A stretch of 36,963 bases of DNA. It comes from a virus (Duplodnaviria > Heunggongvirae > Uroviricota > Caudoviricetes). How positions within the stretch are numbered: the stretch's first letter is position 1; each line of letters opens with the position of its first letter. The stretch lies in IMG/VR virus record IMGVR_UViG_2563366920_000001; one strand, given 5' to 3'. A model generated the notes under the pieces. It saw nothing but the letters and a program-made list of their open reading frames with translations, did no database searches and had not been told where the DNA came from. Shown here piece after piece: positions 7,340 to 18,852 of the stretch. The position numbers and the translations under genes were made by a program.

Positions 7340-8281
7340 ATGAGCACTAAATTAACCGGCTATGTATGGGATGGTTGCGCTGCGTCAGGCATGAAATTAT
7401 CCAGCGTGGCAATTATGGCCCGCCTGGCTGATTTCAGTAATGACGAAGGTGTGTGCTGGCCATCAATTGAAACCATTGCCCGTCAGATTGGCGCGGGGAT
7501 GAGTACCGTCAGGACGGCTATCGCACGGCTGGAAGCAGAAGGCTGGTTAACGCGTAAGGCGCGTCGCCAGGGTAACCGCAATGCGTCGAATGTTTATCAG
7601 CTTAACGTTGCGAAGCTTCAGGCAGCGGCATTTTCTCAACTGTCAGATTCTGACCCGTCAAAATCTGACGCATCAAAATCTGACCCGTCAAAATTTGATG
7701 CGTCGAAATCTGGCAAAAAAGCGGGTTTTCACCCGTCAGAATCTGGCGGGGATCCGTCAGTAAAATCAAAACATGATCCGTCAGATAAAAAACCTTCTCG
7801 TCCGGACGCTTCGCAACCGGACACGCAGACGGATGAACAGGATTTTTTAACTCGCCATCCTGATGCGGTTGTATTCAGCCCTAAAAAGCGCCAGTGGGGA
7901 ACGCAGGATGATTTGACCTGCGCACAGTGGCTCTGGAAAAAAATCATCGCCCTGTACGAGCAAGCCGCCGAATGTGACGGCAAGGTGGTTCGTCCCAAAG
8001 AACCGAACTGGACAGCCTGGGCAAACGAAATTCGCCTGATGTGTGTGCAGGATGGTCGTACTCACAAACAAATCTGCGAGATGTACAGCCGCGTCAGCCG
8101 CGATCCGTTCTGGTGCCGTAACGTGCTCAGCCCGTCGAAGTTGCGGGAAAAATGGGATGAGCTTTCCCTGCGCTTATCACCGTCCGTCAGCACGTACATC
8201 GAAAAACGCGAAGACCCGTACTTCAAATCCAGTTACGACAACGTGGACTACAGCCAGATCCCGGCAGGATTCAGGGGGTGA
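7340..8281 (+). CDS. Replication initiation protein (O-like; N-terminal HTH, iteron-encoded linker, C-terminal domain)
   Basis: ATG at 7340 with GAGG Shine-Dalgarno. N-terminus MSTKLTGYVWDG...VCWPSIETIARQIGAGMSTVRTAIARLEAEGWL is typical of phage replication initiators. The central SDSDPSKSDASKSDPSKFDASKS repeat is coded by the DNA iterons. Confidence 0.7.
   Translation: MSTKLTGYVWDGCAASGMKLSSVAIMARLADFSNDEGVCWPSIETIARQIGAGMSTVRTAIARLEAEGWLTRKARRQGNRNASNVYQLNVAKLQAAAFSQLSDSDPSKSDASKSDPSKFDASKSGKKAGFHPSESGGDPSVKSKHDPSDKKPSRPDASQPDTQTDEQDFLTRHPDAVVFSPKKRQWGTQDDLTCAQWLWKKIIALYEQAAECDGKVVRPKEPNWTAWANEIRLMCVQDGRTHKQICEMYSRVSRDPFWCRNVLSPSKLREKWDELSLRLSPSVSTYIEKREDPYFKSSYDNVDYSQIPAGFRG
7646..7790. 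repeat. Iteron array (putative ori) inside the replication initiator gene
   Basis: At least six tandem copies of a 15-16 bp unit with core CCGTCA(A/G)AAT (for example CTGACCCGTCAAAAT twice, CTGACGCATCAAAAT, GATCCGTCAGTAAAAT), analogous to lambda ori iterons within gene O. Confidence 0.55.
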
Positions 8282-8283
8282 TC

Positions 8284-8772
8284 ATGAGTCTTTTGAATGA
8301 AGTTCAGAAATTCATTGAAGCCCATCCGGGATGTACTTCCGGAGACATTGCGGATGCTTTTGCAGGTTACTCACGGCAGCGCGTTCTGCAGTCAGCAAGC
8401 AAGTTACGTCAGAGTGGGCGTGTGGCTCACCGTTGTGAAGGAGATACACGCAGACATTTCCCGCGCCTGACTGAGAGAGCGCAGGAACCGGAACCACAAC
8501 CAGTTCGAGAAACCAGACCTGTGCGCAATTTCTATGTCGGCACTAACGATCCACGGGTGATTTTGTGCCTGACCCGCCAGGCTGAAGAACTGGAGTCCAT
8601 GGGCTTATACCGTCGTGCTGCAACCGTGTGGATGGCGGCATTCCGTGAAAGCCACTCCCAGCCAGAACGAAACAATTTTCTGGCGCGTCGTGAGCGGTGC
8701 TTACGGAAAAGCAGCAAGCGCGCTGCATCGGGTGAAGAGTGGTATCTGTCAGGGAATTACGTGGGGGCTTAA
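8284..8772 (+). CDS. Putative regulatory or replication-associated protein (wHTH N-terminus, PerC-like C-terminal motif)
   Basis: ATG at 8284 with GGGGG Shine-Dalgarno (a GTG at 8278 is also possible). Motif GLYRRAATVWMAAFRESH...RRERC resembles PerC-family prophage regulators (recollection). Confidence 0.45.
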   Translation: MSLLNEVQKFIEAHPGCTSGDIADAFAGYSRQRVLQSASKLRQSGRVAHRCEGDTRRHFPRLTERAQEPEPQPVRETRPVRNFYVGTNDPRVILCLTRQAEELESMGLYRRAATVWMAAFRESHSQPERNNFLARRERCLRKSSKRAASGEEWYLSGNYVGA

Positions 8773-9425
8773 TGAGTAATAAATATTGCCAGGCGCTGGT
8801 GGAATTGCGGAACAAACCAGCCCATGAACTGAAGGAAGTGGGCGATCAGTGGCGCACGCCGGACAACATTTTCTGGGGAATTAACACCCTGTTTGGCCCG
8901 TTTGTTCTGGATCTGTTTACTGACGGTGATAACGCCAAATGTGCCGCGTATTACACGGCGGAAGATAACGCGCTGGCGCATGACTGGTCAGAACGTCTTG
9001 CGGAGCTTAAAGGTGCTGCCTTTGGTAATCCCCCATACAGCCGCGCCAGTCAGCATGAGGGGCAATACATCACCGGCATGCGTTACATCATGAAACATGC
9101 CAGTGCCATGCGTGATAAGGGCGGGCGCTATGTTTTCCTGATCAAAGCTGCCACCAGCGAAGTGTGGTGGCCGGAAGATGCGGACCATATTGCTTTTATT
9201 CGCGGGCGTATTGGTTTTGAACTGCCTGCCTGGTTTATCCCGAAGGATGAGAAGCAGGTGCCGACAGGCGCTTTCTTCGCTGGTGCTATTGCTGTTTTCG
9301 ACAAGACCTGGAAGGGACCGGCAATCAGCTACATCGGGCGCGATGAACTTGAGGCATGTGGTGAAGCCTTTCTGGTGCAGGTTCGCCAGCAGGCGGAAAA
9401 ACTGGTCAGGGAGATGGCGGCATGA
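8772..9425 (+). CDS. DNA N6-adenine methyltransferase (phage Dam-like family)
   Basis: ATG at 8772 overlapping the upstream stop as TAATG. Catalytic NPPY motif (AAFGNPPYSRA). Small size and layout typical of phage Dam-like methyltransferases. Confidence 0.8.
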   Translation: MSNKYCQALVELRNKPAHELKEVGDQWRTPDNIFWGINTLFGPFVLDLFTDGDNAKCAAYYTAEDNALAHDWSERLAELKGAAFGNPPYSRASQHEGQYITGMRYIMKHASAMRDKGGRYVFLIKAATSEVWWPEDADHIAFIRGRIGFELPAWFIPKDEKQVPTGAFFAGAIAVFDKTWKGPAISYIGRDELEACGEAFLVQVRQQAEKLVREMAA

Positions 9426-9748
9426 CGACGTTAACTCAATGCCAGCAGCAGGTGCTGGATATGCTGATTTCTTACCAGAAAGAGCGTGGCTTTCCGCCAA
9501 CCAATCAGGAGGTGGCAACCATGCTGGGATACCGTTCAGTGAATGCAGCGGTAGAGCATCTTCGTGCACTGGAGAAAAAAGGCGTCATCACGATAAAGCG
9601 TGGCGTGGCCCGGGGGATAACGCTTCATACCGCGGTGAAGGACGACGACAGCGAGGCGGTCGGGATTATCCGCGCACTGCTTGCCGGTGAGGAAAACGCC
9701 AGGCTGCGTGCAGCCCACTGGTTACATGAGAGAGGCCTGAAAGTATGA
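9422..9748 (+). CDS. LexA-like DNA-binding domain protein (108 aa, no peptidase domain)
   Basis: ATG at 9422. N-terminus LTQCQQQVLDMLISYQKERGFPPTNQEVATMLGYRSVNAAVEHLRALEKKGVI resembles the LexA winged-helix DNA-binding domain. Confidence 0.6.
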   Translation: MTTLTQCQQQVLDMLISYQKERGFPPTNQEVATMLGYRSVNAAVEHLRALEKKGVITIKRGVARGITLHTAVKDDDSEAVGIIRALLAGEENARLRAAHWLHERGLKV

Positions 9749-10134
9749 AGCTGATCTTGCCTTTCCCGCCCAGCGTGAACACGTACTGGCGACACCCCAA
9801 CAAAGGGGCGTTTGCTGGTAAGAGTCTGATAAGCGCGGCGGGGCGAAAATTCCAGAGCGCGGCGTGCGCAGCAATAGTTGAGCAGTTACGTCGTCTGCCG
9901 AAACCAACGTCGGCACCTGCTTCAGTGGAGATCGTGTTGTTTCCTCCGGATAACCGGATCCGCGATCTGGACAACTATAACAAGGCGCTGTTTGACGCCC
10001 TGACCCACGCGGGTGTGTGGGAAGACGACAGTCAGGTGAAAAGAATGCTGGTGGAGTGGGGACCGGTTATCCCGGAAGGGAAGGTCGAGATCACTATCAG
10101 TAAGTACGAGAAAACGGCGGGTGCAGCCGCCTGA
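9745..10134 (+). CDS. rusA: Holliday junction resolvase RusA
   Basis: ATG at 9745 overlapping the upstream stop. LILPFPPSVNTYWRH...RDLDNYNKALFDALTHAGVWEDDSQV matches the RusA family with its catalytic aspartates. Confidence 0.85.
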   Translation: MKLILPFPPSVNTYWRHPNKGAFAGKSLISAAGRKFQSAACAAIVEQLRRLPKPTSAPASVEIVLFPPDNRIRDLDNYNKALFDALTHAGVWEDDSQVKRMLVEWGPVIPEGKVEITISKYEKTAGAAA

Positions 10135-10153
10135 TTAAGAGGAGAAACGAAGT

Positions 10154-10963
10154 ATGAATAATCTGATGGTCATTGATGGTATTGAAGTTCGTCGTGATGC
10201 TTATGGGCGTTACAGCCTGAACGATCTGCATCGCGCAGCAGTAGCATCTGGTGCAAATGCCAGAACCAAGGAGCCGGGAAAGTTTCTTTCCAGCCAACAA
10301 ACTGTTGAGCTTGTTCATGAATTGACCAACACCCAGAATTTGGGTGTTGACCCGGTGAGTGTGATTCATGGGGGAAATGAACGGGGAACGTATGTCTGCA
10401 AGGAACTGGTGTATGCCTATGCAATGTGGATCAGCCCGTCATTCCATCTGAAGGTGATCCGTACTTTCGATATGGTAACCAGCGCACCGGAAAAATTATC
10501 CGGACAGGCTGCTGACAAGATGCAGGCTGGCGTGATCCTGCTGGACTTTATGCGCCGGGAGTTAAACCTGTCTAACTCTTCAGTGCTTGGTGCCTGTCAG
10601 AAACTCCAGGAGGCTGTTGGCTTACCGAATCTGGCACCGCGCTATGCCATTGATGCTCCTGCTGACGCGCCTGATGGCTCAAGCCGCCCCACGCTATCAT
10701 TGAGTGCACTGCTGAAGCAGTATGGTATCCGCCTGACAGCTAATCAGGCATATCACCAGATGGCGAAGCTGGGGATCGTTGAACAACGTGAACGATACAG
10801 CCGCACTGCGATTAACAACATCAAAAAATTCTGGTCGCTGACGGCGAAAGGCTGCATGTTCGGCAAGAACATCACCAGTCCCGCAAATCCGCGCGAGACG
10901 CAGCCGCATTTCTTCGAATCCCGATTCCCTGAGCTGTTAAAGTTGCTCGATACCGTTCATTGA
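10154..10963 (+). CDS. KilA-N domain protein / antirepressor-like (269 aa)
   Basis: ATG at 10154 with GAGGAGAAA Shine-Dalgarno. N-terminus VIDGIEVRRDAYGRYSLNDLHRAA is KilA-N-like; the C-terminal half resembles phage antirepressor (KilAC) domains. Confidence 0.7.
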   Translation: MNNLMVIDGIEVRRDAYGRYSLNDLHRAAVASGANARTKEPGKFLSSQQTVELVHELTNTQNLGVDPVSVIHGGNERGTYVCKELVYAYAMWISPSFHLKVIRTFDMVTSAPEKLSGQAADKMQAGVILLDFMRRELNLSNSSVLGACQKLQEAVGLPNLAPRYAIDAPADAPDGSSRPTLSLSALLKQYGIRLTANQAYHQMAKLGIVEQRERYSRTAINNIKKFWSLTAKGCMFGKNITSPANPRETQPHFFESRFPELLKLLDTVH

Positions 10964-11059
10964 GGTGACCGTGAGAGCACTACTGACCCCTGAAATAGCC
11001 CCGCGTATGGGGATCGTATTGTTCAGACCAGGTTCAGAGCTGATGCCCCTGTTTATGCC

Positions 11060-12608
11060 TGTCTCTTGATCAGATCTCCTGATCAAGAGACTTCATCACC
11101 AGGTAACCCTCAACCATATCCTGAAGTCTGAACCAGCCATCCCACATGACTACCCAACCGGGGCGACCTGTGCGTTTGCTGTCATGCCATCGCCCCAGTT
11201 TCGCCAGTTTCAGACAGGCCCATTTCAGTGTCGGCATCTGTGACGGAAGCGGTTTTCCTTCCAGCTTAACCCACAGCAGTTTCCACTCTGTCGGCGTCAG
11301 TATTTTCTCACAGCTGTCATTTTGTGTTTCTTCACTGATACCGCCCTGCCGCAGGCCCAGCACCCGCACCGCGATAAACGCCTTGATAACCACCATGCGC
11401 TCGAGGTTATCCCGGGTCTGCATTCGCAGCGATTCCACACATGTACCACCACTTTTCCACGCCTTGTGGTATTCCTCTATCAGCCAGCGTCGCTCGTAAT
11501 GGCTGACGATACGTCGCGCATCGGCGGCACTCGCCACTTTTTCTGACGTCAGCAGATGCCAGCAGGCGCCGTCCTCTGCCTGCTCCCGGCAACAGACATA
11601 CGTGAGCGGGAGCGCCTGGCCGCTGTTGTCGGGATTTTTTATGCTGACTTCGCTGTAACTGATGAACATCCGGGCCTGGCGGGCTGCCCGCCCGCCTTTT
11701 TGCATCACATTTAGCGTGTGGCTTCCCGCGGTTGCTAGGACTTCCGGCAGTTCGAAGAGCTTGCCGGGTGCTTCTTCCAGCCGGCGATTCTGTGCTGCAC
11801 GCACCACGAAGCGCTGCCCGTGGCTGACTTTATAATGCAGGTAATGCCAGATATCCGCTTCCCGGTCACAGACAGTGATTACCCGTTTCTGTATCTCCCC
11901 CAGCCGTTCGGCCATGCGCTCCGAAGCCTGCTGCCAGCGGTAACTTTCTTTTTCTTCATAGGGACGTTCTTTTCGCTGGTGCTTAACACCGTAGGTGTCC
12001 GTGGCACGACTCCAGCGCTGCTGTTCGATAAGACCGACTGGCAGGGCGCTGTCGGGGGCGTACATCAGGACAGAGTGAGCCAGCAGCCCGCGCGTCTTCG
12101 GGTTAGTGGTGGTATTCCCCAGGTCATCAGATGCCGTACTGTGACTGAAGTTAATGGTGGTGGTGTCTTCCAGCGCGAGGAGCAGCGGATGAGCCTCACA
12201 TGCCCTTACAGTGGCGGTAAATCCGGCTTCGGCAATGGCTTGCGGGGACACAGACGGGTTACGTATCAGGCGGTACGCACCTTCAACCTGAGCAGTGGAC
12301 TGGGATGATTTCACAATAGAAAGACCTGCATGCTGAGCGAGAGAAGAGGCCAGTGACACAAGGCGTCGTGTACGACGCGGATCACCGAGACGGGCATGTC
12401 CAAACTGCTCGTTAGCCCATGAATAACAATCAGAAAGTACCATAACAGACCCGAAGAAAATGAAATATAAGAGAAGATCAACGGGTGAGGAAAAAGTTCA
12501 AAAAATCGCTGCCGGGGAGGAAGGAAACTACCGGATGGAAAGAGTCCCCCTAAAGCAGACTGACAGACATCACAAATCCCCGGGTGGGGATTTGTGTATA
12601 AGAGACAG
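11060..12608 (-). mobile_element. IS4-family (IS50-like) insertion sequence, about 1549 bp, with target-site duplication
   Basis: Left terminus CTGTCTCTTGATCAGATCT (11060-11078) is identical to the IS50 inside end as I recall it. Right terminus, reverse-complemented, is CTGTCTCTTATACACAAAT (ending 12608), outside-end-like. Flanking direct repeat GTTTATGC at 11052-11059 and 12609-12616. Confidence 0.8.
11070..12443 (-). CDS. tnp: Transposase (IS50/Tn5 Tnp family, 457 aa)
   Basis: ATG at 12443. Conserved blocks GDPRRTRRL, VCDREADI, RWLIEEYHKAWKSG and DSKRTG align with Tn5 transposase. ORF ends inside the inside-end-like terminus as in IS50. Confidence 0.85.
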   Translation of the reverse strand: MVLSDCYSWANEQFGHARLGDPRRTRRLVSLASSLAQHAGLSIVKSSQSTAQVEGAYRLIRNPSVSPQAIAEAGFTATVRACEAHPLLLALEDTTTINFSHSTASDDLGNTTTNPKTRGLLAHSVLMYAPDSALPVGLIEQQRWSRATDTYGVKHQRKERPYEEKESYRWQQASERMAERLGEIQKRVITVCDREADIWHYLHYKVSHGQRFVVRAAQNRRLEEAPGKLFELPEVLATAGSHTLNVMQKGGRAARQARMFISYSEVSIKNPDNSGQALPLTYVCCREQAEDGACWHLLTSEKVASAADARRIVSHYERRWLIEEYHKAWKSGGTCVESLRMQTRDNLERMVVIKAFIAVRVLGLRQGGISEETQNDSCEKILTPTEWKLLWVKLEGKPLPSQMPTLKWACLKLAKLGRWHDSKRTGRPGWVVMWDGWFRLQDMVEGYLVMKSLDQEI

Positions 12609-13535
12609 GTTTATGCAGGGGCGTGTACTGCTGGAGCCTGAGCCGGAACGTTATTCATCTTTCGCCAGTGGTGCCGTTCCCGCGGCATCACAACCGCTGG
12701 CGGATGATCCTGCTGTTCGGGCCGTGTTCCGCAATGAGGCAGTGATCCGTCGTGCTGGTGGCGTGGAATGTCTTGAAAGCTGGTTACTTCGTGAAAAAGG
12801 CTGCCAGTGGCCTCATTCCGACTGGCACAGCGAGAACATGACCACAATGCGACACGCTCCGGGCGCAATCCGTCTGTGCTGGCACTGTGATAACCAGCTG
12901 CGCGATCAGTTCACGGAACGGCTGGAATCAATGGCAACGGATAACTGTGCCCGCTGGGTGTTGTCTGTTGTGCGTCGGGATCTCGGTTTTGATGATAGTC
13001 ACGTTGTGACAATGCCGGAACTGTGCTGGTGGCTGATTCGTAATGACCTGGCGGATGCCTTACCGGAAAGTGCAGCCCGTAAGGCACTGAGATTACCAAA
13101 GCCTGTTGTGCCGTCTGTCACCCGGGAAAGTGACCTTGTGCCTTCGGTTCCTGCCACCAGCATCATCCAGGATAAGGCAAAAAAGGTGCTGGCGCTGAAA
13201 GTGGATCCGGAGTCGCCGGAGTCTTTTATGTTACGCCCAAAACGTCGCCGCTGGGTTAATGAAAAGTACACGCGCTGGGTTAAGACACAGCCGTGTGCAT
13301 GTTGTGGAAAGCCCGCTGATGATCCCCACCACCTGATAGGCCACGGTCAGGGGGGAATGGGTACAAAAGCGCATGACCTCTTTGTGTTGCCTTTGTGCAG
13401 AAAGCATCACGACGAGCTGCATGCGGATACCGTGGCATTTGAAGAGAAGTATGGCTCCCAGCTGGAGCTGATATTTCGTTTTATCGATCGCGCGCTGGCA
13501 ATTGGCGTGCTGGCCTGATTTTGTGGAGAAAGTTG

Positions 13536-13913
13536 ATGCGTGATATTCAGATGGTTCTGGATCGTTGGGGGGCATGGGCGGCGAGTGATAGTTCTGGGGT
13601 AGACTATTCGCCTATAGCTGCTGGGTTTAAAGGGCTTCTTCCCTATACAAGCAAAACACGTCAGGCTTGTTCAGATAGTGATGCATTAATTATTGAAGGT
13701 TGTCTTGCTCGTCTAAAGCAAAAAAGACCTGAAGAACACTCGCTTCTTGTTGCCCATTACCTATACGGTATCTCTAAAAGAAAGCTCGCCAAGGCTCGTA
13801 AAAAGGATGAGAAACTAATACGCATTGAGATACAGATGGCTGAGGGGTTTATTGATGGCTGCCTATCGATGTTGGAAATTAGTCTAGAGATGGACCCCGA
13901 AGTTAAAGATTGA
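13536..13913 (+). CDS. Late antiterminator Q (phage 82 / QuuD-type)
   Basis: ATG at 13536 with GGAG 7 nt upstream (ORF track starts at TTG 13521). N-terminus MRDIQMVLDRWGAWAASD...IAAGFKGL matches Q proteins of 82-like lambdoid prophages as I recall them. Confidence 0.75.
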   Translation: MRDIQMVLDRWGAWAASDSSGVDYSPIAAGFKGLLPYTSKTRQACSDSDALIIEGCLARLKQKRPEEHSLLVAHYLYGISKRKLAKARKKDEKLIRIEIQMAEGFIDGCLSMLEISLEMDPEVKD

Positions 13914-13920
13914 TTATTGA

Positions 13921-13945
13921 AGCCCGATTACTCGGGCTTTTGTTC
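13921..13945. terminator. Hairpin terminator between the convergent Q and moron genes
   Basis: AGCCCGA-TTAC-TCGGGCT stem-loop (13921-13939) followed by TTTTGTT on the plus strand. The stop codon of the minus-strand 339-aa gene lies in the loop. Confidence 0.5.
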
Positions 13946-14947
13946 CACATCTCGAACATAGAGAATTACTGCTGACTTAATGTCACCATCGACGTGTTTT
14001 GCGTTAATGCTCAAATGTACAGGCTTTCTTTCCCACTCAGCTCGCTGCAATGCTTCTTTGTTTCCGGATTCATCAAGGAAAACATCCTGAACTACGCAGG
14101 TTAGACGTTGGTCGGTATCTACGCGTCGGACCTTAACTTTGAAACTCTCTGGGTCAGTATTATTGACTTCTTCAATTCGGTAAATACCATCAATCCTCAT
14201 TTCTGATGAACGTCTACGAGCATTCGTAACCAACTCTTTCGCCATTTCAGAATCAATAGTAACGCCATCAATTTGAGCGTTATCTGAACGCACAAAGGAT
14301 TTGACCATTTGGGTTTTAGCGTCATACGACATACGGTCCATGTTATCGAGAAGTGGTTTTTCCGCAATCATTTCTGAAATAACCCGCAGGCGTTTAGTTT
14401 CTTGCTCGCTCATGATCTGCATAGTCCGGAGATGTTCTTTCTCTCCATCCTTAGCAATTTCTGCAAGGCGAATATCTTTGCGGTTGTCCAAGAACCGTTT
14501 AAATACTGTTACTCCGCCCCAGATGACTGCTGCGCCGAGAACAGTAAACATGATCTCAGTTGCGTTCATTTTACCAACAAGTTCCTGTGTGAGTTTGGTT
14601 AAAAAGCCATCAATGTTGATTTCTACTATTGAAGAACCCTGTTCTACCGTAACTTCTATTTCTAGGGCATCAAGTTCTTCTTTGGTCAGTTTGCGGACGT
14701 CAGGGACACCGTACTTGGCAAGGGCATATGATTTGTTGATTTGAGCTTGCATTTCAACAAATCCCTTCATAACTGAAGGTGTTAGCGATCTGTTGAATTT
14801 TTCACCGGTTAATCTGATGGTAAGGTTTGGCCATCCGTTGAAACTTAAACTGTCAGGTAAACCATAACCATCAAGATAGCTTTCAAGCAAATCGAAGGCT
14901 TGCTGCTCAGATTCAATGTCTACATGAATCTCATCAAACTTATCCAA
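13928..14947 (-). CDS. Hypothetical membrane protein (339 aa, one predicted TM helix); moron gene of unknown function
   Basis: Long opposite-strand ORF in a markedly AT-rich segment. TTG start at 14947 with GAGGA 7 nt upstream; first in-frame ATG is 59 codons downstream. Hydrophobic stretch IMFTVLGAAVIWGGVTVF mid-protein. No family recognised. Confidence 0.6.
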   Translation of the reverse strand: MDKFDEIHVDIESEQQAFDLLESYLDGYGLPDSLSFNGWPNLTIRLTGEKFNRSLTPSVMKGFVEMQAQINKSYALAKYGVPDVRKLTKEELDALEIEVTVEQGSSIVEINIDGFLTKLTQELVGKMNATEIMFTVLGAAVIWGGVTVFKRFLDNRKDIRLAEIAKDGEKEHLRTMQIMSEQETKRLRVISEMIAEKPLLDNMDRMSYDAKTQMVKSFVRSDNAQIDGVTIDSEMAKELVTNARRRSSEMRIDGIYRIEEVNNTDPESFKVKVRRVDTDQRLTCVVQDVFLDESGNKEALQRAEWERKPVHLSINAKHVDGDIKSAVILYVRDVEQKPE

Positions 14948-15122
14948 AAGTATGTCCTCATTCTAAGCCAACTGTCACCGTGAGGTTTGGCAACGCCTGC
15001 TTTATTTTTCGTTTTAAGTTGTGTGGCAAAAAAATAATGGAAAAACAGATAAAAATCACTAACGCGGTCCGCATTTTCTAGATTACTGTGTTAAGAGTGG
15101 TTACTTCGCCACACAGCTTAAA

Positions 15123-15145
15123 CCCGCCGCTGAGCGGTTTTTTTG
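15123..15145 (+). terminator. Candidate intrinsic terminator (possibly tR' of the late leader)
   Basis: Short GC hairpin CCGC-TGA-GCGG followed by seven T residues, in the intergenic region upstream of the late-region genes. Confidence 0.35.
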
Positions 15146-15266
15146 TACCTGTAAACTTGGTGCAGTACAGTAAACACGCTGGTGGTCGTGAATACTGACT
15201 TTTTATCTTGCTGGCTTTTTAGACAAGAGTTATTGGTATGTCATGTTAACCAGAAGGGAAAAAGAC

Positions 15267-15470
15267 ATGCTAAAACAGCAAGATATGACAGAAACCGCCG
15301 CCGTAGTCCTTCATTTCTTACCTGCTGACAAGTGGGTAACGCCACGCATGATGACGAGAACTACCGGAGTAAGCGAAGCCCGGTGCCAGTTAATACTGAC
15401 TCAGTTAGTTCTGGCGGGTCTGGCGAAGGATAACGGCGGGTATGGGAATAAATTCAGACGCTGCCAGTAA
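15267..15470 (+). CDS. Small winged-helix protein (PapI/FaeA-like suspected, about 67 aa)
   Basis: ATG at 15267 with GGGAA upstream (alternative ATG at 15243). Segment AAVVLHFLPADKWVTPRMMTRTTGVSEARCQLILTQLVLAGLAKDNGG resembles PapI/FaeA-type wHTH regulators (recollection). Confidence 0.4.
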   Translation: MLKQQDMTETAAVVLHFLPADKWVTPRMMTRTTGVSEARCQLILTQLVLAGLAKDNGGYGNKFRRCQ

Positions 15471-15620
15471 TGGCGGTTTCCTGCTGTGAAAATGGGCGGC
15501 TGGTGGGTGTTGGTAGCACCTGCCAGCCATTCGCTCATGCTTACTGGTCACAAGCGAACCACGGCCCACTGCTTTAGCGCAAAAGCAGAGTGAGCCTACC
15601 AGAGTTACGCTTACTGATCC

Positions 15621-16673
15621 ATGAAAAATACTGTAAAAATAAACAGTGTTGATTTAATCAACGCTGATTGCCTGCATTTTATTCAGTCCCTGCCTGATGA
15701 TTCCATTGACCTGATTGTTACCGATCCGCCTTACTTCAAGGTGAAACCTAACGGTTGGGACAATCAGTGGAAAGGGGACGAAGATTACCTTAAGTGGCTG
15801 GACCACTGTCTGGCCCAGTTCTGGCGGGTGTTGAAACCTGCCGGAAGCCTTTACCTGTTCTGTGGGCATCGCCTGGCATCTGATATTGAGATCATGATGC
15901 GTGAACGTTTCAACGTGCTTAACCATATCATCTGGGCGAAGCCGTCCGGACGTTGGAATGGGTGTAATAAAGAAAGTCTGCGCGCATATTTTCCTGCCAC
16001 AGAGCGCGTTCTGTTTGCTGAACATTACCAGGGGCCATATCGCGGCAAAAGTGACGGCTATGCGGCAAAAGAAAGGGAACTCAAACAGCACATAATGGCA
16101 CCGCTGATATCGTATTTCAGGGATGCTCGTGCCGAACTGGGTATAACGGCAAAACAAATTGCCGAAGCCACAGGTAAGAAAAATATGGTTTCCCACTGGT
16201 TTGGTGCCAGTCAGTGGCAGTTGCCGAATGAGGCTGACTATCGGAAGTTACAGGCACTGTTTTCCCGTATAGCGGCAGAGAAGTTTCAGGAACAACAACT
16301 GGAACAACCACACCACCAGCTGGTGGCATCTTATGATTCACTGAATCGCAAATATTCTGAATTGCTGGATGAGTTTAAATCTCTCCGGCGCTATTTCTCC
16401 GTATCAGTCTCCGTGCCTTATACCGATGTCTGGACGCATAAGCCCGTTCAGTTCTACCCGGGTAAACATCCGTGCGAGAAACCGGCGGATATGCTCCGGC
16501 AAATAATCAATGCCAGTAGTCGACCTGGTGATCTGGTTGCTGATTTCTTTATGGGATCCGGTTCCACAATAAAAGCAGCAATGGCGCTGGGGCGTCGGGC
16601 GTTAGGTGTTGAACTTGAGTCAGAGCGGTTTAATCAGACGGTGAAAGAGGTAAGTGAACTGGTGGGGAAATAA
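15621..16673 (+). CDS. DNA methyltransferase, N4/N6 family (beta-class, 350 aa)
   Basis: ATG at 15621. Motif IV DPPY near the N-terminus (DLIVTDPPYFK) and AdoMet motif I near the C-terminus (DLVADFFMGSGSTIKAA), the beta-class order. Confidence 0.85.
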   Translation: MKNTVKINSVDLINADCLHFIQSLPDDSIDLIVTDPPYFKVKPNGWDNQWKGDEDYLKWLDHCLAQFWRVLKPAGSLYLFCGHRLASDIEIMMRERFNVLNHIIWAKPSGRWNGCNKESLRAYFPATERVLFAEHYQGPYRGKSDGYAAKERELKQHIMAPLISYFRDARAELGITAKQIAEATGKKNMVSHWFGASQWQLPNEADYRKLQALFSRIAAEKFQEQQLEQPHHQLVASYDSLNRKYSELLDEFKSLRRYFSVSVSVPYTDVWTHKPVQFYPGKHPCEKPADMLRQIINASSRPGDLVADFFMGSGSTIKAAMALGRRALGVELESERFNQTVKEVSELVGK

Positions 16674-16680
16674 TTCTGGT

Positions 16681-16705
16681 GGCCACGTTGCGTGGCCTTT
16701 TTATT
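16681..16705 (+). terminator. Intrinsic terminator between methyltransferase and holin
   Basis: GGCCACG-TTG-CGTGGCC hairpin followed by TTTTTATTT. Confidence 0.5.
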
Positions 16706-16749
16706 TCCAACACAGCACCCGCAAATATCGCGAGGTGAGAGATGACGAA

Positions 16750-17085
16750 ATGTCTCATAACCCAAATACCTGGCCGGACTGGCTGGAGTTGTTTCAGAGC
16801 TGGTGGCGTGGAGACACACCGCTGGGTGCAGTGATTATGTCGATCGTTATGGCTGGTTTGCGCATCGCCTATTTTGGCGGTGGTGGTGGCTGGAAGCGAA
16901 AAACGCTCGAGATTTTGCTATGTGGCGCTCTGACGCTGACCTTTGCATCCGCTCTTGAATATGTCGGATGGCCTAAATCGCTTTCTGTTGCCATTGGTGG
17001 TGGCGTGGGGCTGATCGGTGTCGATGCTATTCGTGGGGCTGCAATGCGAGTAATCGGTAACAAATTTGGTAGCTCGAAGGAGTAA
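16750..17085 (+). CDS. Holin (lambda S-like, 111 aa, three hydrophobic segments)
   Basis: ATG at 16750 (ORF track begins at an upstream GTG). Three hydrophobic stretches and a charged C-terminus. Immediately upstream of the endolysin. Confidence 0.65.
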   Translation: MSHNPNTWPDWLELFQSWWRGDTPLGAVIMSIVMAGLRIAYFGGGGGWKRKTLEILLCGALTLTFASALEYVGWPKSLSVAIGGGVGLIGVDAIRGAAMRVIGNKFGSSKE

Positions 17086-18122: not shown

Positions 18123-18428
18123 TTATTCGTAGTTGTCACCAGGGAAGTATTCCTGAAACTTTGATTTTGGGAGCTGGGTTTTCGCGAAGTTCGCAAGCCT
18201 TCCTCTTGTAAGCATGTAGTCACACCCACCTTCTTGTTTGAGAAGGTCACCAGCTAATGTCCGATACACAACGTCACTTCGCAAAATTTCAATGGTGGAA
18301 TTCCTGATGAGAAATGTTTCACACATCGGGCATCTAATTAACCAAGCGGTATCACGGTTCTGCCAGGTCGCATCTGAATTGCAAGCCGGGCAGCATTTCT
18401 GATCTTCTTGTCCTATGACCATTGTCAT
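18123..18428 (-). CDS. Hypothetical zinc-ribbon protein (101 aa), opposite-strand moron in the bor position
   Basis: ATG at 18428-18426. Two Cys pairs (CCPAC...CPMC) about 20 residues apart. Protein-like composition. Not similar to lambda Bor as I recall it. Confidence 0.5.
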   Translation of the reverse strand: MTMVIGQEDQKCCPACNSDATWQNRDTAWLIRCPMCETFLIRNSTIEILRSDVVYRTLAGDLLKQEGGCDYMLTRGRLANFAKTQLPKSKFQEYFPGDNYE

Positions 18429-18501
18429 GCTCTCGCATAGTGAAGGAATTTTCAGATTAACTCATTTTCAGACGCATCGTAATGGCTTAAGGAAACAATT
18501 A

Positions 18502-18852
18502 ATGCCACCACGTACACCAAAAGCCTGCCGCGTTCGCGGTTGCCGCAATACCACTACTGACCCGTCAGGCTATTGCGAAAGCCACAAAAGCGAAGGCTGG
18601 AAGCAATACAAACCAGGCCTGTCACGTCATCAGCGCGGCTACGGTTCGAAGTGGGACAGTATCCGCGCGCGTGTCCTGAAGCGTGACAAAGGCCTGTGTC
18701 AGTTATGTCTGCGTGCTGGTGTGGTGCGTGAGGCGAAGACCGTTGACCACATCATCCCTAAATCGCATGGCGGCACTGATGTCGACAGTAATCTGCAGAG
18801 TTTGTGCTGGCCGTGTCATAAGGCGAAGACGGCCCGTGAACGGCTGAAGTAA
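18502..18852 (+). CDS. HNH endonuclease (terminase-associated)
   Basis: ATG at 18502 with AAGGAA. Cys-rich N-terminus plus HNH core (VDHIIPKSHGGTDVDSNLQSLCWPCH), immediately upstream of terminase as in HK97-like phages. Confidence 0.8.
   Translation: MPPRTPKACRVRGCRNTTTDPSGYCESHKSEGWKQYKPGLSRHQRGYGSKWDSIRARVLKRDKGLCQLCLRAGVVREAKTVDHIIPKSHGGTDVDSNLQSLCWPCHKAKTARERLK

Follow-up and report, generated by a model that had tools for sequence, protein, structure and literature searches.

Two unrelated predicted adenine methyltransferases without a recognisable restriction partner in an SfV-like prophage

Why one temperate phage should carry two DNA methyltransferase genes, and whether these belong to restriction-modification systems or act alone, are the questions raised by the locus described here. 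An earlier note on the window (the whole stretch of DNA analysed, 36,963 nucleotides, IMG/VR record IMGVR_UViG_2563366920_000001) had claimed two unrelated methyltransferases, the first in a nin-like region and the second in the late region. Both open reading frames were found, at 8772–9425 and 15621–16673, and both were intact. The local alignment score between the two proteins was 40, compared with 32 ± 4.5 for shuffled sequences; similarity was thus not detectable. The proposed locations also held, the first gene lying in a delayed-early operon and the second downstream of the late terminator and ahead of the lysis genes. Alignment, which the note had suggested as a means of detecting disrupted catalytic motifs, revealed that motifs and invariant residues were intact.

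The window starts with a 417-aa gene of the aldehyde dehydrogenase family, its size and family being consistent with proA, and contains the thrW tRNA-Thr(CGU) gene at 1369–1444; the remaining sequence represents most of an SfV-like temperate phage. The tyrosine integrase was encoded on the minus strand (1459–2622). Beyond it, genes for an S24-peptidase repressor, a CII-like regulator, and a helix-turn-helix replication-type protein were present, and genes for an HNH protein, the small and large terminase, portal, tail sheath, tape measure, and baseplate J proteins were found further downstream. The phage is temperate, with lambda-type regulation and a contractile tail. Positions 8000–17000 shared approximately 97% nucleotide identity with Shigella phage SfV, coliphages mEp460 and cdtI, and several Stx2c phages.

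The gene of the early nin-like region (8772–9425, plus strand) encoded an uninterrupted orphan methyltransferase of 217 aa, equal in length to its phage homologues. The protein matched Pfam PF05869 (‘Dam’) with an E value of 9.7e-46 and 156 bits (cut-off 28.1; profile positions 3–167 of 169) as well as the NCBIfam equivalog TIGR01712 (phage_N6A_met) with 255.6 bits (cut-off 97.05; positions 1–165 of 165). The NPPY motif occupied residues 86–89. In an alignment with homologues from Klebsiella, Aeromonas, Vibrio, Staphylococcus, and Lactococcus phages, down to 30% identity, the enzyme retained every family-invariant residue (W27, T29, P30, D47, N54, K56, C57, N66, L68, W72, N86–Y89, G145, R146, and F149); the distant homologues were drawn from phage records, the matches listed by the protein search being at least 77% identical. 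We failed to find a match to PF02086 (MethyltransfD12, the family of E. coli and T4 Dam) at E ≤ 0.01, and none of the solved structures, including that of Dam, matched the enzyme by sequence at E ≤ 1. Of the earlier description as a Dam-like N6-adenine enzyme with an NPPY motif, the motif and the N6-adenine assignment (PF05869/TIGR01712) stood, while membership in the PF02086 Dam family did not: judged by its sequence, the protein is ‘Dam’ by name and reported activity alone and falls outside the E. coli/T4 Dam family.

Compared with SfV Dam, 3 of the 217 residues were different (98.6% identity), and the copies of mEp460_4F5 and of a UPEC E. coli prophage were 99–100% identical to the enzyme. 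The SfV genome paper (Allison et al. 2002, J Bacteriol 184:1974) is reported to describe multiple encoded DNA methylases and an experimental confirmation of orf41 as a Dam methylase. In GenBank U82619, the SfV homologue is annotated as ‘dam, DNA adenine methylase’. From the near-identity to SfV dam, its annotation, and this reported confirmation, we infer GATC as the probable target of the early enzyme. The window contained 145 GATC sites compared with about 143 expected from base composition, and the observed/expected ratio for the prophage minus the insertion sequence was 0.74 by a Markov estimate, several other 4-bp palindromes giving similar values; no selection signal tied to the phage Dam was seen in the GATC frequency of the window or the prophage.

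In many RefSeq phage records, homologues of the early gene are labelled ‘phosphoadenosine phosphosulfate reductase’. Two enzymes considered as possible relatives were discarded: Hia5, first considered a member of PF05869, is related to the alpha-class Dam (PMC3299994), and M.EcoGIX, considered a phage Dam-like enzyme, is plasmid-borne, single-strand-specific, and irrelevant to the early enzyme. Regarding a kinship with M.EcoVT2Dam, phage VT2-Sa was absent among the best 60 matches to the early enzyme, all of which were at least about 67% identical.

The start of the early gene overlapped the stop codon of a PerC-like gene (TAATG, 8770–8774), and its stop codon overlapped the start of the next gene (ATGA, 9422–9425). 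These overlaps at both ends indicate that the gene is a member of a delayed-early operon located between the replication gene and Q, in the order PerC-like regulator, methyltransferase, LexA-DNA-binding-domain protein, and RusA.

The late-region gene (15621–16673, plus strand) encoded an uninterrupted orphan methyltransferase of 350 aa, also equal in length to its phage homologues and 99% identical to the product of SfV orf48. It matched Pfam PF01555 (N6_N4_Mtase) with an E value of 1.3e-42 over profile positions 1–220 of 221. The DPPY motif (motif IV, residue 35) preceded FMGSG (FxGxG, motif I, residue 310 of 350), as in the beta class, and both motif regions aligned to the solved beta-class enzymes RsrI, MboIIA, and CcrM. 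Identity to M.EcoGII over the full length was 80.6% (283 of 349 residues, 2 gaps), with higher values for the N-terminal catalytic part (89%) than for the C-terminal part (77%), and identities to the reconstructed active ancestor Anc291 and to SUPREM were 88% and 70%, respectively; the M.EcoGII and ancestor sequences used in these comparisons were taken from a machine-read PDF of Supplementary Table S1 of PMC11551740 and contained a few reading errors. The beta-class assignment of the earlier note with its motif order was upheld, and its N4/N6 alternative could be narrowed: these similarities place the protein in the M.EcoGII family as a predicted N6-adenine, not N4, methyltransferase.

M.EcoGII methylates adenine in any sequence context (PMC5778455), and Anc291 and SUPREM are active and largely non-sequence-specific (PMC11551740), the lack of site specificity having been experimentally demonstrated for M.EcoGII, Anc291, and SUPREM (PMC5778455, PMC11551740). 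The late enzyme is probably non-specific as well, methylating most or all adenine contexts. Its target-recognition region (residues 160–237) was 76.9% identical to that of M.EcoGII, and 18 of the 78 positions differed, so the enzyme may keep some sequence preference.

Upstream of the late gene, a Q-type late antiterminator was encoded at 13521–13913 on the plus strand (phrog_79, anti-termination protein Q-like, E 2.5e-47; the RefSeq name of its homologue is ‘antiterminator Q family protein’). A terminator-like hairpin with a T run (15121–15148, plus strand; stem at 15126–15138 followed by TTTTTTT) was conserved with a segment downstream of Q to which the SfV annotation assigns a putative rho-independent terminator, and is a candidate for the late terminator that Q overcomes. 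From Q to this conserved hairpin, the sequence differed from that of SfV, which fits an exchange of the Q/late-promoter module. Between the hairpin and the methyltransferase gene, directly upstream of the latter, a small ORF of 67 aa was found (15267–15470, plus strand; 75 aa from the ATG at 15243; phrog_331). Its homologues, 56–97% identical, occupy the same position in SfV (orf47), mEp460_4F5, and an Stx2a phage; its structure model comprised three predicted helices at low confidence (pLDDT 56). A further terminator-like hairpin followed just after the methyltransferase stop codon and before the holin gene (16681–16707, plus strand; GGCCACGTTGCGTGGCC then TTTTTATTTC), and SfV has an annotated putative rho-independent terminator at the equivalent place. 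Hairpin-plus-T-run sites at 15126–15138 and 16681–16697 thus bracket the small ORF and the late methyltransferase gene. In the Stx2a phage, Q, the small ORF, and the methyltransferase gene have the same order, ahead of tRNAs and stx2AB, and in a Vibrio phage the gene for a 56%-identical methyltransferase is located directly ahead of the lysis genes. The location of the late gene between the conserved late terminator and the lysis genes indicates that it is probably expressed only after antitermination by Q.

Published data on relatives of the late enzyme fit this timing. M.EcoGI and M.EcoGII are prophage-borne, are unexpressed or give no methylation signal in the lysogen, and are harmful when constitutively expressed; phage 1720a-02 was named as a carrier of an enzyme very similar to M.EcoGII (PMC5778455). 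A 99% homologue of M.EcoGI in ST131 was transcriptionally inactive (PMC4659465), and in published work on ST131 and O111 strains close homologues were transcriptionally inactive or went undetected. In a 2025 review, M.EcoGII is grouped with Mu Mom among the modification enzymes of temperate phages that are expressed on induction and silent in the lysogen (PMC12707154).

The early operon and Q are separated by an insertion sequence, ISEc13 (IS4 family, IS50-like; 1550 bp, 11059–12608, minus strand), which was 99.9% identical over 1550 bp to copies annotated as ISEc13. Its transposase (11070–12443, minus strand) contained Tnp_DNA_bind, DDE_Tnp_1, and Dimer_Tnp_Tn5 domains and matched NF033590 at 514 bits; together with the terminal inverted repeats CTGTCTCTT, these features identify the element as ISEc13. 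The transposase of IS50 of Tn5 likewise has Tn5-type DNA-binding, DDE, and dimerisation domains, but the two are separate elements. The insertion is flanked by the 8-bp repeat GTTTATGC, and the empty site is present in SfV. It splits a DUF968 gene after codon 29 (GTG start, as in the RefSeq homologue): the first 29 codons are located at 10971–11057, on the other side of ISEc13 from the 3′ part at 12613–13518. At this site, ISEc13 was found in none of 5,426 complete E. coli genomes (best coverage 82%), which suggests a recent event.

The transposase-distal 19-bp end of ISEc13 (11059–11077) has the sequence CTGTCTCTTGATCAGATCT, which matches that of the IS50 inside end, both GATC sites included. 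The IS50 inside end is Dam-regulated, Dam methylation inhibiting IS50 transposition. As the earlier note had observed, this end carries two GATC sites (11068 and 11073); a third was found at 11081. That these sites are connected with the phage enzyme, and not with host Dam, had no support beyond co-location.

Both methyltransferases occurred together in 37 of the best 60 phage records for each enzyme, and each was found without the other in 23 of its own best 60, where weaker homologues may be hidden; among these records, SfII carries the early gene only and phiP27 the late gene only. The pair recurs in mEp460, cdtI, 1720a-02 (99.1% identity for the early and 81.4% for the late enzyme), Stx2 phages, and phages of other Enterobacterales, and in Citrobacter, Klebsiella, Hafnia, and Providencia phages both proteins have diverged to 65–82% identity. 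The whole 8.8-kb arrangement minus the insertion sequence was present in 18 of the 5,426 complete E. coli genomes. Shared descent of the phage lineage is the simplest reading of this distribution. That the pair is kept in lambdoid phages of Escherichia, Shigella, Citrobacter, Klebsiella, Hafnia, and Providencia despite divergence at the 65–80% level points to a more speculative reading, which we consider doubtful: the early PF05869 and the late M.EcoGII-type enzymes would form a co-selected two-stage methylation programme, with the small ORF (phrog_331) as a possible controller or partner restraining or directing the non-specific enzyme.

With good confidence, the locus is best explained as an SfV-like prophage with two stand-alone, unrelated N6-adenine methyltransferases, an early one probably acting on GATC and a late, probably non-specific one, which would guard progeny DNA and take no part in restriction-modification. 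The integrity of both genes, their families and motifs, the gene order, the flanking hairpins, and the lack of a recognisable nuclease partner were observed directly; the sequence specificities, the timing of expression, and the protective role are proposals. The early enzyme would be made soon after induction or infection, translationally coupled within the delayed-early operon, and would top up GATC methylation on fast-replicating phage DNA left under-methylated by host Dam. In P22 and lambda, replication is reported to outrun host Dam, which leaves the virion DNA under-methylated (PMC8022706), and there are other phages that depend on a GATC enzyme of their own or encode one (PMC12707154). 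The late enzyme would be transcribed when Q antiterminates, remaining silent in the lysogen, where such an enzyme would be toxic; it would methylate adenines in most or all contexts on progeny genomes shortly before packaging, and the released phage would gain broad protection against adenine-methylation-sensitive restriction systems of the next host. The most likely role of both enzymes is thus self-protection of progeny and exported phage DNA. The rationale is weaker for the early enzyme than for the late one, since the E. coli or Shigella host already has Dam. The assumed role of M.EcoGII-type prophage orphans is the overcoming of host restriction (PMC5778455; review PMC12707154), so this literature supports the earlier suggestion of orphan enzymes acting in anti-restriction or epigenetic control.

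A role of either methyltransferase, or of both, within a restriction-modification or similar defence system, with the 339-aa ORF, the DUF968/HNH protein, or the small ORF as the nuclease, is very improbable. The early gene is surrounded by genes for the PerC-like regulator, the LexA-DNA-binding-domain protein, RusA, a KilA-N protein, and the DUF968 protein, and the late gene by those for the Q-type antiterminator, the 339-aa protein on the opposite strand, the small ORF, holin, lysozyme, and Rz. In agreement with the earlier note, which had seen no restriction partner, comparison of these flanking ORFs with PADLOC, Pfam, PHROGs, and NCBIfam gave no restriction-enzyme match, while both methyltransferases matched the Type II methyltransferase models of PADLOC. 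The low GC content and opposite orientation of the 339-aa ORF (13928–14947, minus strand; function unassigned) are typical of a lysogen-expressed moron and made it a candidate partner; however, its predicted model was a membrane protein with an OB fold and no nuclease fold, which answers the search for nuclease folds proposed in the earlier note, and SfV has the late methyltransferase without this ORF. The 3′ part of the DUF968 gene (YdfU-like, HNH-type; 12613–13518, plus strand; PF06147, E 4e-81; phrog_96) gave a weak HNHc_6 match but matched no restriction-enzyme model of PADLOC. The only nuclease-type matches of PADLOC in the window were weak (E ≥ 2.6e-5) and concerned the HNH protein encoded at 18415–18852. 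This gene adjoins the terminase genes, where packaging HNH proteins normally sit. The occurrence of each methyltransferase in phages without the other, among the best 60 records for each, also argues against such a system. An adjacent cognate endonuclease, as expected for a Type II restriction-modification system, was found for neither gene; neither gene appears to belong to a restriction-modification system, and the nuclease-neighbour alternative is largely refuted.

It is also unlikely, if less so, that the main function of the enzymes is epigenetic regulation during lysogeny, with effects on host or prophage expression or the stability of lysogeny instead of protection of exported DNA. A putative phage Dam was expressed in Phi24B lysogen cultures, and 933W lysogeny requires host Dam for its stability (PMC3342100). 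In other species, some prophage methyltransferases have regulatory effects, and in SfV a separate promoter is annotated for dam. The hexamers of that promoter are, however, poor, and its −35 element has one more mismatch in the window (TGGCGC), which gives no support to expression in the lysogen; Dam is already supplied by the host, lysogens show no methylation signal from M.EcoGII-type enzymes, whose expression is toxic, and the late gene sits behind a terminator. No evidence supporting a regulatory role in the lysogen was found in this analysis. Slightly less probable again is the view that the intact genes are dead cargo, the late enzyme never being made because ISEc13 upstream of Q blocks late transcription. 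The element splits the DUF968 gene between the early operon and Q, its insertion at this site is shared by none of the genomes compared and appears recent, and on the phage-sense strand it contains a strong terminator-like, GC-rich hairpin followed by T’s (11678–11696), which could reduce transcription into Q. Owing to ISEc13, Q and hence the late methyltransferase may be unexpressed in this prophage. Yet this hairpin is a match of a consensus scan alone, lambdoid early transcription is usually antiterminated and able to pass intrinsic terminators, both methyltransferase ORFs and Q are intact, and in a related Stx2a phage record a hypothetical-protein gene next to the methyltransferase gene is also interrupted by an insertion sequence.

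Protection of phage DNA by two stand-alone enzymes thus remains the preferred explanation, and it leads to the prediction that phage DNA induced from a lysogen would be heavily m6A-modified, which would affect restriction mapping, cloning, nanopore base-calling, and the host range of released phage. For annotation, we suggest that the early gene be named phage N-6-adenine methyltransferase, not ‘phosphoadenosine phosphosulfate reductase’, and the late gene M.EcoGII-family, probably non-specific, adenine methyltransferase. EcoGII is a commercial reagent. The gene pair was reportedly published with the SfV genome in 2002. It is annotated in SfV (U82619) and many other phages and is real but ordinary; the features specific to the window are limited to the inserted ISEc13 and the mosaic Q region, which contains the extra 339-aa ORF.

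Of the known systems, SfV (U82619) is the closest: its dam (orf41) and orf48 correspond to the two genes of the window in both order and context, with 98.6% and 99% protein identity, respectively. The flanking genes for the PerC-like regulator, LexA-DNA-binding-domain protein, RusA, KilA-N and DUF968 proteins, small ORF, holin, lysozyme, and Rz are shared, and so is the integration site next to proA/thrW. The window differs from SfV in the ISEc13 copy in the DUF968 gene, in another Q/late-promoter module, and in the extra minus-strand 339-aa ORF between Q and the late terminator.

M.EcoGII and M.EcoGI from E. coli O104:H4 prophages (PMC5778455) resemble the late enzyme in being prophage-borne without a nuclease partner and in having beta-class architecture, in which the target-recognition region is central, between DPPY and FxGxG; M.EcoGII is 349 aa long, compared with 350 aa here. 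By sequence comparison, the late enzyme appears nearer to Anc291 of PMC11551740 (88%) than to M.EcoGII, from which it has diverged by approximately 19%. The alpha-class E. coli and T4 Dam enzymes (PF02086) share with the early enzyme the reported GATC N6-adenine target and an (N/D)PPY motif, whereas the early enzyme belongs to another family, is much smaller (217 aa), and has its invariant acidic residue, D47, at a distance of only about 40 residues from the downstream NPPY. The same strategy is represented by Mu Mom and by the non-specific Hia5/Hin1523 methyltransferases of Mu-like prophages (PMC3299994), i.e., late, low-specificity adenine modification against many restriction enzymes. However, Mom belongs to the acyltransferase superfamily and Hia5 is related to the alpha-class Dam, both being unrelated to the proteins of the window, and the Com/Mom regulatory circuit of the Mu type differs from that of the window.

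The early methyltransferase gene (8772–9425), encoding a phage N-6-adenine methyltransferase, is labelled "phosphoadenosine phosphosulfate reductase" in many RefSeq phage records; this name looks like a propagated mis-annotation. Its source appears to be the phrog_33262 profile, which spans 495 positions and corresponds to the methyltransferase in its C-terminal half only. The gene overlaps both of its neighbors: the PerC-like gene at TAATG (8770–8774) and the gene for a LexA DNA-binding domain protein at ATGA (9422–9425). Fusions of the same partners—PerC with the methyltransferase (380 aa) and the methyltransferase with the LexA domain (292 aa)—were called in public protein sets; they probably reflect either frameshifts or errors in gene calling.

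The DUF968/YdfU-like gene was cut past codon 29 by the insertion sequence ISEc13 (11059–12608), leaving parts at 10971–11058 and 12609–13518. The 8-bp repeat flanking the element (GTTTATGC) contains an ATG that could serve as a translation restart for the interrupted gene. Inside the element, a GC-rich hairpin followed by a T run was found on the phage-sense strand (11678–11696), which might be polar on the antiterminator gene Q and the late operon. An ISEc13 insertion at this site was present in none of the 5,426 complete E. coli genomes searched. The transposase-proximal end of the element (12590–12608, ...TGTGTATAAGAGACAG) has 16 of 19 bases in common with the Tn5 mosaic end, which is part of the Nextera adapters, and its mis-flagging by adapter-trimming or contamination filters is possible.

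Upstream of the late methyltransferase gene, a small ORF (15267–15470 or 15243–15470) was assigned to phrog_331. It is kept immediately 5' of M.EcoGII-type methyltransferase genes in the Shigella phage SfV, in mEp460_4F5, and in an Stx2a phage. Three helices were predicted for its product (15267–15470) in a structure model of low confidence, and a putative role as a DNA-binding or controller protein is only a guess. Another ORF, encoding a 101-aa cysteine-rich protein (CPAC...CPMC), lies on the minus strand at 18123–18428, opposite to the surrounding Rz and HNH/terminase genes; it had no match in Pfam or PADLOC.

The prophage is integrated at the thrW site, as shown by a proA-like gene, tRNA-Thr(CGU) (1369–1444), and a minus-strand integrase gene within positions 1–2622. 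The window stops within the tail-fibre genes; the right end of the prophage and any O-antigen modification genes fall outside it. The thrW site is also that of SfV. SfV lacks the 339-aa ORF located in the window on the minus strand between Q and the late terminator (13928–14947), in a stretch of low GC content (about 43%). This ORF matched phrog_6191, with no family annotation. Sequence inspection revealed a centrally placed hydrophobic helix, and the predicted structure model has an OB fold in the C-terminal part. The ORF may be a lysogen-expressed moron, e.g., encoding a superinfection-exclusion protein; homologues with about 30–45% identity are carried by Pseudomonas and Acinetobacter.
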